Assembly: GCA_016839705.1 (NCBI GenBank)
Contig: JAEOTR010000045.1
Coordinates: 1 to 38,890 of the forward strand
Source: Promethearchaeota archaeon
GTDB lineage: Archaea; Asgardarchaeota; Lokiarchaeia; Sigyniarchaeales; SOKP01
Direction of reading: 5' to 3'
DNA length: 38,890 nt
The stretch's first letter is position 1, and each line of letters starts with the position of its first letter. This document shows, piece after piece, positions 4,074 to 10,030 of the stretch. Below the pieces are notes generated by a model. It did not search any database and was not told the DNA's origin. It saw only the letters and a list, made by a program, of their open reading frames with translations. The translations under genes were made by a program, and so were the position numbers.

Positions 4074-4346
4074 CTAGAAGCGGAAATCTCCTCTTCTTCC
4101 TCTATTATAAGGACTAGGAGGTGCTTTTTCGGTTACGACAACGTTGCTTGCTTGAGGTCCTTTTTGTCCCTCGGTTATTTCAAATTCAACTTTGTCATTT
4201 TCATTTAAGGTTTTATATTCGTCATCTCTCCCACTTAATGCAGAGTAATGTACAAATACATCAGTTCCTTCTTCAGAATTTATAAATCCATAGCCTTTTC
4301 GGCTATTAAACCATTTTACTGTTCCTTTTACCAATTTTATAACCAA
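4074..4346 (-). CDS. cspA: Cold-shock domain protein
   Basis: [15 protein letters not shown] (RNP1), DVFVHYSAL (RNP2), [10 protein letters not shown]. Confidence 0.93.
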
Positions 4347-4540: not shown

Positions 4541-5491
4541 ATGACTAAATTAGAATTTTACAACATAGTCGAAACTGATGATTTACAAGTATCAATACCG
4601 CGTACTAGTCATTTCACTGTAGGAACCTCCCCTTATTATGCACACCAGCATGCCCTGGGGATTGATATCTATCACTCACTATTTTTAGATAACTATGAAG
4701 TGCTTAGTCCCATCTCAGGGGAAATTTTAAAAGTGAAGACTTTAATCGCCCCAAAACCAAAGTTTGTGGGTGGTATTGATAAGGATTACCTTATTTTGGT
4801 AAAAAACCCTCAAAATCCGGAAATTACGTATAAAATCCTGCATGTTAAATCTGATGATATTCAGGTTGGTGATCAAATTAAAATAGGAGATCCACTAGGT
4901 ACGACGATTCGCAATGGGTATTTTGCTAAATGGTCAAGTCCTCATTTGCATCTTGAAGTTAGACCCTCTCACGACGCAATTCGGGCAAGTGGGGGTAGAC
5001 CATTTTCTTTAGCATTTAAAAAGAGGAAAAATAAGAGTTATAAAAAGTATGGAAAATTTCAAGAGATTTCCATCAAAATTCAATCAATTTTCCCCGAATT
5101 CTTACTTGGGAATTTTTCTGAAGACCTATATAAGAAAATTGATCCCATTTGTGGTGTTAAGGTTAGTATTAATCAAATGGAATATGTACTAGATGGGGGC
5201 ATGCCCCACTATAAAACGGGTACCATTATTTCCTCTCATAAGCTCATAAAAGAAATAGATCATTCCATATATTTAGGAAATTACAAAATTGGGAAATTAA
5301 ACAAGTCACGCGGTCATTTTGGTTTTTTTAAATTTGATTCTTCACTAAAATTTCTTCTAAATGATCAGAAAATTAGAGGAATATCTCTATATCTGGCAAA
5401 TTTTACACCTTTAATAAAAATAATTCCATTTAGCGATGGTCAAACTAATTTAGATACTAATTCAACAGCACGATTAACTATTATTACTTAA
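4541..5491 (+). CDS. M23-like (LytM fold) metallopeptidase-related protein
   Basis: HxxxD-like 'HALGID', 'VLSPISGEI', 'VGDQIKIGDPLG' and HxH motif 'PHLHLEVR'; no signal peptide visible. Confidence 0.65.
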   Translation: MTKLEFYNIVETDDLQVSIPRTSHFTVGTSPYYAHQHALGIDIYHSLFLDNYEVLSPISGEILKVKTLIAPKPKFVGGIDKDYLILVKNPQNPEITYKILHVKSDDIQVGDQIKIGDPLGTTIRNGYFAKWSSPHLHLEVRPSHDAIRASGGRPFSLAFKKRKNKSYKKYGKFQEISIKIQSIFPEFLLGNFSEDLYKKIDPICGVKVSINQMEYVLDGGMPHYKTGTIISSHKLIKEIDHSIYLGNYKIGKLNKSRGHFGFFKFDSSLKFLLNDQKIRGISLYLANFTPLIKIIPFSDGQTNLDTNSTARLTIIT

Positions 5492-5577: not shown

Positions 5578-5750
5578 GATCTTCTTATCCCCTTTCACCT
5601 AAGTTTATGAAATTTTGCAAGTTAATTAAGATTTGATTTTTAGAAGATAGAAATAATATTTAACAATTTACATTACAAAAAATATTAATGGGGTTATGAT
5701 TAATATCTCAGAAATCTTTTAATATCAGAAAGTATATATTTTCAATAACA

Positions 5751-5834
5751 ATGATTTCAAATAAAACTGCTGTAGTTATCAATCTAAAAGCGAAATTACT
5801 TTTAGTGAAGCTTAAAACAGTTTTATTATTATAA
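5751..5834 (+). CDS. Putative Leu-rich leader peptide of leuS (MISNKTAVVINLKAKLLLVKLKTVLLL)
   Basis: 27-codon ORF with 8 Leu codons, including LLL at codons 16-18 and 25-27; ends 135 nt before leuS; about 30 nt downstream of a BRE/TATA-like gaaatcttttaatat. Confidence 0.55.
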   Translation: MISNKTAVVINLKAKLLLVKLKTVLLL

Positions 5835-5919
5835 GCGATACAAACCGTTTTGCCCTTATTCTTTTAAAAACTTCGGCAGGCTTGTTCGCTTTACCGGCAT
5901 TATTAATCGAAGAAGGGCA
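5787..5919 (+). promoter_or_regulatory. Structured leuS leader RNA (candidate attenuator)
   Basis: Nested pairings tgccctt(5851-57)/aagggca(5913-19) and cttcg(5871-75)/cgaag(5908-12); alternative pairing of aaagcgaa(5787-94) or aagcga(5833-38) with ttcgcttt(5885-92). Confidence 0.45.
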
Positions 5920-5969
5920 TAATAGGCTCAGATTCAAAATTACAAACAAAAAAAAATGTGGAAATTTAG

Positions 5970-8822
5970 ATGATTCAAAATACTTACAACTACAAGAAAA
6001 GTGAAAAAAAATGGCAGAAGAAATGGGTCGAAGCACAACTTTTTGAGGCGGATAGAGATGAAAGGGAGAAATATTTCATCAATTTCCCTTTCCCTTATCT
6101 GAATGGACCCCCGCATTTAGGTCATGGTTATAGTTTATTAAAAGCCGATGTAATGGCTAGATTTCAAAGAATGATGGGGAAAAATGTATTGTTTCCATTC
6201 GCTTTTCATGCAACGGGTGAACCTATCGTAGGTGTTGCAAAAAGAATCAAAGCAGGTGATGAATCTCAAATAAGGATTTTAAAGATATCAGGGGTTCCTG
6301 AGAAAGAAATTCCTAAATTTAAAGATGCCGAATACATTGTTAACTATTTCAAAAATAAATGGATTGAGACAACGACAACATTAGGATTAGCTATCGACTG
6401 GCGAAGGCAATTTGTCACTACACAGTTGACTCCTACTTTTTCGAAATTTGTAGAATGGCAATATAGGAAATTGAAAAAAGATGGTTATGTAATTCAAGGG
6501 TCACATCCTGTAATTTGGTGTCCAGCAGATCAAAGTCCAACTGGAGACCACGATCGATTGGAAGGCGAAGGCGCTCGTATAGTGGATTATGTTGTTATTA
6601 AATTTTATTCTGAGGCACTTAATGCTTTTTTCTTGCCTGCCACATTGAGACCTGAAACAACATATGGGGTCACTAATATGTTTGTGCACCCTGAAGCATC
6701 ATATGTAAAAGTAGTTATTAATGGTGAAAATGTAATCATTTCTAAAGATGTTGTCATTAAGTTTCAAGATCAGAAATTTAAAGTTGGAGATATCGAGGAA
6801 GTAGCCACTAACGAGTTAATCGGGACCTATCTTACTAATCCAGTTAATAATGAGCAGATAATAGTTTTACCTGGTGATTTCATAGATACAGCCGGTTCAA
6901 CGGGAGTCGTTATGTCTGTACCCGCACATGCACCTATGGATTGGATTACTTTGAAAAATTTACAAGAGAATCCTGATAGTTTGAATAATTGGGGTATAAA
7001 CCTGGATGAAGTAATGTCAATTAAGCCAATTGCTTTGATCAAAGTGGAAGGATATGGTGAATTTCCCGCAGGTGAGGAAATTGAAAACCGTAATATCACT
7101 TCTCGTGATGATCCAGAAGTAAACGAAGCAACTAGAATAATTTACAGAAAAGAGCATAATTCTGGAATACTATTAGCGATAACTGGAAAATACAAAGATA
7201 TGACGGTTGAGTTTGTAAAAGACAAGATTATTGATGATTTTATTCATGATAATATTGCGTTTATCTTAAAAGAACCTGGAGAACCTGTTGTTTGTAGATG
7301 CGGTACTAGAAATCATGTGAAATATCTTGAAAACCAATGGTTCTTAAAATTTTCGGATACAGTTTGGAAAGACAAAACTCACAAACTTTTGGATAAAATG
7401 GATGTTTTCCCTATTGAAGCTCGAAAAGCGTTTCATAACACAGTTGATTGGTTAGAAAATAAAGCGTGTGCACGTAGATCAGGTTTGGGAACCCCTATGC
7501 CTTGGGATACTGATTGGATAATAGAAACATTGTCAGATTCGGTCATCTATATGGCATATTATATAATATCTAAATATGTCAATGATGGACGATTTACACT
7601 AGAATATTCAACGGATGAGGTTTTTGAATTTATATTATTAGGTAATGGTGATCCAAAAACTATTAGTGATGATGTTGGTATTGATCTTTCATTGTTAGAA
7701 GAAATTCGAGAAGAATTAGTATATTTCTATCCTTTTGATTTAAGAACATCAGGTAAGGATCTCCTAAATAATCATTTGACTTTTATGTTAATGCATCACA
7801 CAGCAATATTTCAAGAAGAATTTTGGCCTTTGGGTGTTGCTGTTAATGGCTATGTTGCAATTGAAAATATAAAAATGGGTAAAAGGTATGGAAACTTCAA
7901 AACAGTTGAAGATGTTGTCAATGTTTTTGGTGTAGATGCCGCAAGATTGGGATTCTTAATCGCTGGAGAGGGATTGAAAGATGCTTCTTTCTCATTAGCT
8001 GAAGCTGAAAGTTATGTCAAATGGATCCAAAATTTGTATGAAATGGCTTTAGAAAATATAGATGATGCGGAAGAAAAACAAATTGATCAATGGTTAGTTT
8101 CACGTATTCAAAATCATATTAGAACAACTATAAATTCTCTATCTAAAATGGAAACAAGATCTGCTTTTCAATCGGCATTTCACGCAACACTGCAAGATAT
8201 TCGTTGGTATTTGAAAAGACGAGGATCAAAAGGACCCGCTTATTCCTATGCGCTGGAAAATATTATATTGCTAGTGTGCCCTTTTATTCCCCACGTTGTT
8301 GAAGAAATCTGGGCTGTTAAAGGAAACCTTGGTTTTGCTTCAACCGCCCCATATCCTATTATCGATCAAACCAAAATTATCAAGGATTCAGAATATGCTG
8401 AGAAATTTCTTGATTCGTTTATTGATGATATAAAAAACTTGAAGAGTATCTTGTTAGAAAAGGAAAACAAAAAATTGGAAAAGATTGAAGTATTTATAGC
8501 CCCAAAATGGATGTACTTAATTTACTCTGAAGCATGTGAAAATGGGTTAAATGAGTTAATAAAGCGAATTATGCAGAATCCTGATATTAGAAAAGTTGGA
8601 CAGAGCGCCGTTAAATATGCCCAGAATTTGGTGAAAGATAGAGCTCCTCCTGATTTTCCATGGACTCAATCCTCTGCGATCAAAATATTGAATGAAGCAA
8701 AAGAATACATTGAGAAGCAAGTAAATACATCGATTGTAATCATCGAAGCTGAAAATTCCTCCCATATAAAAGCAAAAGCAGCAATACCTAGGAGACCAGG
8801 TATCAACTTTATTATGCAATAA
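5970..8822 (+). CDS. leuS: Leucine--tRNA ligase, archaeal/eukaryote-type
   Basis: FPFPYLNGPPHLGH (HIGH motif), HATG, IDWRRQF, ATLRPET, GSTGVVMSVPAHAP (editing domain), SGKDL..NHLTF, C-terminal AIPRRPGI. Confidence 0.95.
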   Translation: MIQNTYNYKKSEKKWQKKWVEAQLFEADRDEREKYFINFPFPYLNGPPHLGHGYSLLKADVMARFQRMMGKNVLFPFAFHATGEPIVGVAKRIKAGDESQIRILKISGVPEKEIPKFKDAEYIVNYFKNKWIETTTTLGLAIDWRRQFVTTQLTPTFSKFVEWQYRKLKKDGYVIQGSHPVIWCPADQSPTGDHDRLEGEGARIVDYVVIKFYSEALNAFFLPATLRPETTYGVTNMFVHPEASYVKVVINGENVIISKDVVIKFQDQKFKVGDIEEVATNELIGTYLTNPVNNEQIIVLPGDFIDTAGSTGVVMSVPAHAPMDWITLKNLQENPDSLNNWGINLDEVMSIKPIALIKVEGYGEFPAGEEIENRNITSRDDPEVNEATRIIYRKEHNSGILLAITGKYKDMTVEFVKDKIIDDFIHDNIAFILKEPGEPVVCRCGTRNHVKYLENQWFLKFSDTVWKDKTHKLLDKMDVFPIEARKAFHNTVDWLENKACARRSGLGTPMPWDTDWIIETLSDSVIYMAYYIISKYVNDGRFTLEYSTDEVFEFILLGNGDPKTISDDVGIDLSLLEEIREELVYFYPFDLRTSGKDLLNNHLTFMLMHHTAIFQEEFWPLGVAVNGYVAIENIKMGKRYGNFKTVEDVVNVFGVDAARLGFLIAGEGLKDASFSLAEAESYVKWIQNLYEMALENIDDAEEKQIDQWLVSRIQNHIRTTINSLSKMETRSAFQSAFHATLQDIRWYLKRRGSKGPAYSYALENIILLVCPFIPHVVEEIWAVKGNLGFASTAPYPIIDQTKIIKDSEYAEKFLDSFIDDIKNLKSILLEKENKKLEKIEVFIAPKWMYLIYSEACENGLNELIKRIMQNPDIRKVGQSAVKYAQNLVKDRAPPDFPWTQSSAIKILNEAKEYIEKQVNTSIVIIEAENSSHIKAKAAIPRRPGINFIMQ

Positions 8823-8836
8823 AATTTTAGTAAAAC

Positions 8837-10030
8837 TTATAACTTATTTTTTTGTATTGCTTTTAAAATATCCAAATATTTTATCATTTCCTTCGTATCA
8901 CTTTTACCTATACAGAAGTCTAATTGTTTAGTAAAGTAATTATTAAATAATTTCAATTGGGGGCTAGAAATTATAAATTGAGAACCATCTTCAATCGTTT
9001 TATCGAATATTGAGTCTTTAACCTCTTCAATATTAATATTGATGATTTGTAGAGCAATCCATTCAAATAATTCCCCGACATTTTCATTTGTTTTTGCAGA
9101 GGTCTCCATATAATAAACTCCCAATTCTTTTGCTAAGCTCAAACCTTCTTCTGTAGATACTTGTCTTTCATCCTCCAAATCAACTTTATTTCCTACAAGT
9201 ATTAGAATAATATTTGGTTCCGTGACTTTATCGATAATGTCATACCATTTTCTGACATTTTCAAATGATTCTTTATTTGTTAAATCAAAAGTAATGATAC
9301 CTGCCCGTGAATCAGTTAAGTAATCTGGCCACAAGCGTTGGAATTGGTTTTGTCCTGCTAAATCCCAAATCATAAACTTTACAGAAGTATTTAATTCCTT
9401 AAATTTACATTCTTTCTTGGAGATAAAAGTTCCTATAGTTGCTTTATAATCTGCTTTAAATATTCCGTGAACATATCTTTGAACCATACTTGTTTTGCCT
9501 ACTCCACCATCTCCGATTAAGGATAGTTTGTATACATAATCTGGAGAATGTGATTTTTTCTGATAGTAATCCAATTTACGCCTTAATCTTTCAATTTCAG
9601 TATCCCGTTTAATTGTAGGAATAACTGGGCTCACGGGTAGTTCTCCATCAATAATTCGTGCTACCTTGTCAGCTGCTAAAAATGCATATGGAAAAACATC
9701 ATCTACAAATGTTGCAGGATGCAGAATAGATACTAATACATATTCTGATCCAGATTCACAAAAAATAAATCTATACTTATCAGTATCAAATGTTCCAGCA
9801 CCAAAAGTACCTAAATCAAAGTCTTGTGTTAATTTTTTAAGTATAACTTCAACTAGAGAACTGAATGCGCCTACAAATTTTTTTTCTTCGAGTTCATTAG
9901 AATCTCTTGTTAAAATATCGACTACTAAGCCATCCCTCCCGACAACAAGAACAGAAACTAATGAATCTCCTACTTCTTGCATATACCACTTGAATAATGC
10001 CATCAACCTTTCTTTATCTATGTATGTCAT
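8837..10030 (-). CDS. Roadblock/LC7 domain-Rab-like small GTPase fusion
   Basis: N-terminal roadblock-like 'SLVSVLVVGRDGLVV...'; Rab-like G1 GDGGVGKTS, ATIG, WDLAGQ, GNKVDL, ETSAK. Confidence 0.88.
   Translation of the reverse strand: MTYIDKERLMALFKWYMQEVGDSLVSVLVVGRDGLVVDILTRDSNELEEKKFVGAFSSLVEVILKKLTQDFDLGTFGAGTFDTDKYRFIFCESGSEYVLVSILHPATFVDDVFPYAFLAADKVARIIDGELPVSPVIPTIKRDTEIERLRRKLDYYQKKSHSPDYVYKLSLIGDGGVGKTSMVQRYVHGIFKADYKATIGTFISKKECKFKELNTSVKFMIWDLAGQNQFQRLWPDYLTDSRAGIITFDLTNKESFENVRKWYDIIDKVTEPNIILILVGNKVDLEDERQVSTEEGLSLAKELGVYYMETSAKTNENVGELFEWIALQIININIEEVKDSIFDKTIEDGSQFIISSPQLKLFNNYFTKQLDFCIGKSDTKEMIKYLDILKAIQKNKL

Follow-up and report, generated by a model that had tools for sequence, protein, structure and literature searches.

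The leucyl-tRNA synthetase gene (leuS) of a Promethearchaeota archaeon is preceded by a short leucine-rich open reading frame (ORF) and an RNA with alternative folds, which we interpret, at a probability of roughly 0.8, as a ribosome-read leucine switch, that is, leader-peptide attenuation of leuS. We infer this function from the window (the whole stretch of 38,890 nucleotides analysed here) and from its relatives, comparison with which indicates that the leader is under selection both as a reading frame and as an RNA switch. On the best reading of these sequences, the leuS leader is one of several cognate-codon leaders in Promethearchaeia/Lokiarchaeia, a lineage assigned here from the database labels of relatives. 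The elements of the leader are listed in Table 1.

Table 1. Elements of the leuS leader and the gene that follows it (positions in the window)
Feature	Position	Strand	Basis or remark
TATA-like box	5717..5724	+	T-run invariant in alignment A1; 31–34 nt before ATG in 35 of 37 loci
Leader ORF	5751..5834	+	27 codons, 8 of them Leu, with the Leu run directly before the stop; kept in relatives
Helix P0, 5′ strand (codons 4–7)	5760..5769	+	Consensus helix, alignment A1 columns 53–63
Helix P0, 3′ strand (codons 23–26, overlaps Leu run)	5818..5827	+	Consensus helix; a ribosome on the Leu codons would open it
Segment 1, 5′ strand of helix A, overlaps stop codon	5833..5847	+	Covariation; footprint folding has it under a ribosome that sits at the stop or on the last Leu codon
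Segment 2, pyrimidine/U-rich tract, U4 at 5848–5851 and 5862–5865	5847..5865	+	In the loop when helix A forms, in the 5′ arm when helix B forms; candidate aCPSF1 site
Segment 3, 3′ strand of helix A, otherwise in apical part of the B fold	5878..5891	+	Covariation, consensus folding
Segment 4, purine-rich 3′ arm of helix B (nested stem)	5909..5923	+	Covariation
leuS, archaeal-type leucyl-tRNA synthetase, 950 aa; presumed regulated gene	5970..8822	+	Above NCBIfam leuS_arch cut-off

The leader ORF has Leu codons at positions 12, 16–18, 21 and 25–27, with TTA-CTT-TTA inside and three TTA codons directly before the TAA stop, in agreement with a previous sequence-only reading, which had described 27 codons with all 8 Leu in the last 16. 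Leu-rich short ORFs might simply abound between genes, given that TTA is the commonest Leu codon of this AT-rich genome (46.5%). They prove to be uncommon: among 2755 intergenic short ORFs of this genome, 5 have at least 7 Leu among the final 12 codons, and 6 have LLL at the C terminus. Such chance ORFs mean that the leader ORF, taken alone, is uncommon and not decisive, and that conservation decides. The distance of the TATA-like box from the ATG places the likely transcription start at or near that codon, so the ORF is probably leaderless.

A first search recovered the leader upstream of leuS in 19 of 19 same-genus genomes with an archaeal-type leuS. The ORF is alignable at 37 distinct genus-level loci (alignment A1), and the leader is also present at 18 of 18 further leuS loci of the same family, 17 of which lie in three other genera. 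No Leu leader was found upstream of leuS at 4 loci of other families, nor at the roughly 75 leuS loci examined from more distant archaea. Across the 37 loci the ATG is invariant, the leader frame is always open, the remaining two sense frames are always closed, indels within the ORF are exclusively multiples of 3 nt, and the stop codon is TAA or TGA (TAG in some other genera). None of the 146 non-majority codons is a stop, against about 12 expected from a rough model applied to related loci that are not independent. Leu18, Leu21 and Leu22, which lie outside any conserved helix, exchange TTA, TTG, CTA, CTG, CTC and CTT synonymously. Judged by these comparisons, the leader ORF is a selected open frame with a selected Leu run. 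The alignment thus bears out what the sequence-only reading had proposed to look for in the leuS upstream regions of relatives: a conserved ORF and Leu run, synonymous Leu changes and compensatory changes in the helices.

The RNA around and after the stop codon is conserved as two competing helices. In helix A (5833–5847 with 5878–5891), 94% of alignment cells are paired, with two-sided changes at 3 pairs; in helix B (5847–5861 with 5909–5923), 85% are paired, with two-sided changes at 8 pairs. None of 500 shuffles matches either helix in cells paired or in covariation score, and both helices beat slid registers, in a test in which relatedness inflates the scores and the structures derive from the same sequences. 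Because their pairings cross and one base belongs to both, A and B are mutually exclusive. The nested stem previously noticed after the ORF is the minimum-energy fold (about 5848–5922; z −2.6, 2 of 200 shuffles as good) and corresponds to conserved helix B. Its loop segment had been given two alternative partners, and both complementarities are present (5787–5794 and 5833–5838), but only the stop-proximal one is conserved, at −12.9 to −20.2 kcal/mol across homologues. We rejected the in-ORF partner (5787–5794) as a conserved switch: its pairing reaches −9.7 kcal/mol in the window and −0.6 to −7.3 in 36 homologues. Helix P0, which did not figure in that earlier description, pairs codons 4–7 with codons 23–26 in nearly all loci, and because it includes the terminal TTA run, conservation of the run is partly structural.

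Natural exchanges of the run were found by building an RNA model from the post-stop scaffold and searching it in genomes of the family and of other families, which gave matches in 55 of 81 family genomes and in 0 of 19 other-family genomes. Scaffold-linked ORFs before leuS have 6.6–7.7 Leu and 0.1–0.2 Ile in their last 14 codons, and those before an FrhB-like gene have 3.4 Leu and 5.3 Ile, in a run of Ile, Leu and Val. Other copies carry a Val/Leu run before an ORF of 45–56 residues, and in genus g16, for which no archaeal-type leuS was found, two genomes (L303 and L305) have a Leu-run copy before a bacterial-type leuS. In the Ile/Val, FrhB-linked copies, P0 is re-formed with other letters. 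As the run varies by downstream gene on one scaffold, codon identity tracks the gene while the fold is kept.

The genes behind these copies have features of their own. The FrhB-like gene behind the Ile/Leu/Val scaffold carries a TrmB-type domain (L315:160-3030, L287, L289, L294 and L297-L301), and a MeaB GTPase gene follows it in two loci. The Val/Leu copies (L316:140-850, L317 and L319) have two small acidic ORFs downstream, of 45–61 aa, for which no Pfam match was found.

Cognate leaders also stand before other genes. An unbiased scan of the genome for short ORFs of biased codon content in front of genes brought up poly-Cys, Trp-rich, Ile-rich and Leu-rich ORFs before a cysteine-synthase-like gene, trpB2, ileS and leuA, respectively. 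Within the genus, the leaders recur at 20 of 20 leuA loci, 29 of 30 ileS loci and 30 of 30 trpB2 loci (here L145, G000:C49). The Cys leader is present at 6 of 6 close orthologues of the cysteine-synthase-like gene (here L144, G000:C73), whose name rests on an identity match below the cut-off, and is absent at two distant paralogues. In the leuS, leuA, ileS and Cys leaders, the codon run nearly always extends right up to the stop. Beyond the genus, the leuA leader occurs in 9 of 9 other genera of the family and at 4 of 11 loci of other families; none was found in 7 genomes of other orders. One single-contig genome of another family carries a leuA leader together with candidate Ile and Trp leaders. 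The suggestion that other aminoacyl-tRNA synthetase genes might have cognate leaders holds for ileS and not for the eleven others of this genome: no cognate ORF was found before the Ser, Thr, Gly, His/Pro, Tyr and Trp synthetase genes, nor before those for Met, Arg, Val, Glu and the bacterial-type Leu enzyme, several of these ORF starts being crudely called.

Several of these loci can be described further. At leuA (L147, G000:C82), the Leu-run leader and a long post-stop hairpin are followed by two leuC-/leuD-like genes. At ileS (L146, G000:C97), the Ile-run leader has a GTG/ATG start and its first codons pair within the ORF or downstream; a cysS-like gene lies 75 nt after ileS. In single-contig genomes of another family (L284 and L281 in G083; L283 in G032), ileS has candidate Ile leaders and trpB a short Trp-Pro-Trp one.

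This wider pattern bears on two readings in which leucine is not sensed through the run. In the first, a structured RNA bound by a protein or ligand does the work; the ORF would have no role of its own, and the TTA run would be maintained solely for its pairing in P0. The pairing of codons 4–7 with 23–26 in nearly all loci would fit, as would the ease with which AT-rich DNA yields TTA. An incidental ORF would not account for the invariant ATG, the lack of stops, the triplet-only indels or the synonymous Leu changes outside P0, nor for a codon identity that follows the downstream gene, including the GC-rich Trp and Cys codons. Moreover, searches against Rfam (T-box, riboswitch and leader families) gave no match, the best scores being 10–19 bits, far below gathering scores. 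The comparison largely refutes this reading, which we consider the least probable of those discussed here. Hardly more probable is an activity of the encoded 27-residue peptide, be it as a small hydrophobic protein or by arresting the ribosome from within the exit tunnel. The conserved length (27–29 codons) and hydrophobic C terminus of the peptide are what it predicts; its middle part is very variable among homologues, its conserved N terminus is explained by P0, and the run changes with the controlled gene.

We therefore return to the leucine switch and to how the position of the ribosome might set it. A ribosome would start at the 5′ AUG of the leader and trail the RNA polymerase. When Leu-tRNA is scarce, it would stall on Leu16–25 and leave segment 1 free, so that helix A could form once segment 3 emerges, and transcription would continue into leuS. 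When leucine is plentiful, the ribosome would reach the stop and cover segment 1, helix A would be blocked, and the U-rich segments 2 and 3 would remain single-stranded behind the polymerase until B closes. These exposed segments would allow the transcript to be ended early, most likely by the nuclease aCPSF1/FttA.

Footprint folding, which uses equilibrium models and an assumed ribosome footprint, gives helix A a probability of about 0.9 with the ribosome absent or on Leu18–25, 0.6 with the ribosome on the last Leu and 0.03 with the ribosome at the stop, and helix B 0.74–0.92, taking over on longer RNA. The choice between A and B is thus predicted computationally to depend on ribosome position. 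In the ileS leader, the same approach places a ribosome on the Ile codons with a post-stop hairpin at 0.05 or below, against 0.33 when free, and the 5′ end released for downstream pairing; because the hairpin is suppressed by a ribosome on the Ile codons, it fits the replete state. Folded singly, leuA leaders form a post-stop hairpin, and in the trpB leader the terminal hairpin showed no switch. The early formation of A under stalling and the ileS folding both fit the classical polarity, in which a stall means read-through and a ribosome at the stop means off, and we lean towards helix A as the ON state over the reverse.

The reverse polarity keeps the same leucine sensor and, like a translational or stability output, is counted as a variant within the probability given to the main reading. 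Here, with leucine plentiful, the ribosome would leave, helix A would keep the two-U4 tract open and aCPSF1 would cut; in starvation, a ribosome on the last Leu codons would block A or shield the tract, B would hide it and transcription would continue. The U4 tracts match the aCPSF1 signal, helix B lowers the unpaired fraction of the two-U4 tract from 0.89 to about 0.25–0.35 in footprint folding, and the abutment of run and stop noted above would also suit this arrangement. Stalls on most of the conserved Leu codons (18, 21, 22 and 25), however, keep A and would turn the gene off in starvation, and the ileS leader folding points the other way, which makes the reverse polarity a possible but unlikely account. 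We note that FttA might already bind segment 2 while A and B are still unformed, and neither polarity fully explains this.

The output that we propose is premature termination by aCPSF1, to which we give an even chance. The sequence-only reading had noted that no hairpin with a U run follows the ORF, and a terminator search agrees, with no such terminator in the leuS leader and no U run after helix B; it is because of this lack that aCPSF1/FttA is the likeliest effector. Of the leuS leaders, 73% carry at least two U4 tracts no further than 40 nt from the stop; the figure for ordinary gene ends is 22%. The aCPSF1 of Loki reads two-U4 tracts in Methanococcus maripaludis terminator reporters (PMC8716108), so that the leaders themselves are testable there, and FttA contacts the RNA trailing the polymerase, from −1 to −36 (PMC11616081). 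Full-length aCPSF1 is encoded in 5 of 5 relatives and was not found in this assembly, which is 93% complete.

A second variant with the same sensor has the fold set ribosome loading on leuS or cleavage of the finished mRNA. It would fit the lack of a bacterial-type terminator and the A-rich sequence after B in leuS and leuA, and the leaderless poly-Cys attenuators of mycobacteria provide a precedent (bioRxiv 10.1101/834739). Helix B, however, ends 46 nt before the leuS ATG, and in the consensus fold no conserved pairing was found within 45 nt of the start; with this spacer poorly conserved and unpaired, the Shine–Dalgarno (SD) sequence of leuS is left unsequestered. We regard this output as improbable, more so than the reverse polarity.

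Leader-peptide control of this kind is well described in bacteria. Escherichia coli leuL, trpL and pheM-pheST are classical transcription attenuators, and the leuS leader resembles them in having a short cognate-codon-rich ORF before biosynthesis or synthetase genes and mutually exclusive helices, one of which overlaps the stop region. It differs in its archaeal host, its TATA promoter and its probable leaderless start, and in having no hairpin with a U run, the U-rich tract lying instead in the 5′ arm of the last helix. The bacterial leaders tnaC and mgtL are factor-dependent and work with Rho; the model proposed here is similar in that ribosome position would gate access of a factor to single-stranded RNA, with alternative helices, and differs in that the factor would be the nuclease aCPSF1/FttA rather than Rho. 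Among archaea, Xie and Reeve reportedly proposed in 2005 a two-codon Met-Trp leader for the Methanothermobacter trp operon and suggested attenuation; that leader, which is said to concern a single locus mainly under repressor (TrpY) control, shares with ours the archaeal host and a cognate codon in the leader.

Predicted attenuators precede leuS and trpS in Streptomyces (PMC1262725). The actinobacterial LEU element before leuA likewise lacks a terminator and has a Leu-run upstream ORF together with alternative or pseudoknot folds; its Leu run pairs with the leuA SD, whereas here the run pairs with the 5′ end of its own ORF (PMC1262725). Closest in form is the mycobacterial poly-Cys 'ribulon' (bioRxiv 10.1101/834739), which also has (probably) leaderless short ORFs with a C-terminal cognate run and independent leaders at several loci, and a stalling-based reading, inferred in our case. 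The Asgard leaders differ in that no SD-sequestering duplex was found and in that they involve four amino acids (Leu, Ile, Trp and Cys) rather than one. The leuS leader stands apart from both the classical and the mycobacterial systems, because tests for an intrinsic terminator and for SD sequestration were negative.

A 2021 paper stated that no transcription attenuation was known in archaea, and our literature search, in which subscription journals were thinly covered, found no report of archaeal or Asgard leader-peptide attenuation. We hypothesize that Promethearchaeia have attenuation for several amino acids (with leaders for Leu, Ile, Trp and Cys and for branched-chain mixtures), in which leaderless mini-ORFs, together with switchable RNA, control the CPSF73-like nuclease aCPSF1, a proposal whose chances we put at about half. 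If true, bacterial attenuation logic would be wired to eukaryote-like termination, and this would be the first transcription attenuation known in archaea. Selected cognate leaders with covarying alternative helices would also provide genetic evidence for a regulatory use of coupling in Asgard archaea, the group most closely related to eukaryotes.

The gene behind the leader has a separate history. The LeuRS of the window is 32–36% identical to the usual enzyme of the genus and 62–66% identical to Heimdallarchaeia/Kariarchaeota enzymes, among which it nests in a quick tree. Contamination was rejected as the source, given that 3 other genomes of the genus share this type and carry the leader. 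In one relative (L274:591-655, G069:C21), the decayed first ~60 nt of the usual genus leuS lie between the leader and a Heimdall-type leuS, which suggests that the leuS coding sequence was swapped in place, a Heimdall-type one replacing the usual one while the leader and its scaffold stayed. The KMSKS motif of the window LeuRS (around residue 635) reads KMGKR, and KMSKR in close relatives.

The genome encodes a second LeuRS, of bacterial type and without a leader (L148:920-3706, G000:C49), so the leuS leader may control an inducible second enzyme. The leader-free protein matches leuS_bact over residues 4–785 and archaeal models over 610–929, and is possibly a bacterial–archaeal chimera; most relatives have matches similar to it. 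Around the leader and leuS, the window encodes a cold-shock-domain-like protein that starts at TTG and has a tail rich in Arg and Gly (4074–4346, minus strand) and, convergent with leuS, a 397-aa protein whose N-terminal part is roadblock/longin-like and whose C-terminal domain is a small GTPase (8837–10030, minus strand). Upstream of the leader lies a gene for a 316-aa protein with a weak Peptidase M23 match (4541–5491, plus strand), and a similar gene (DUF8155) is located near leuS in L113.
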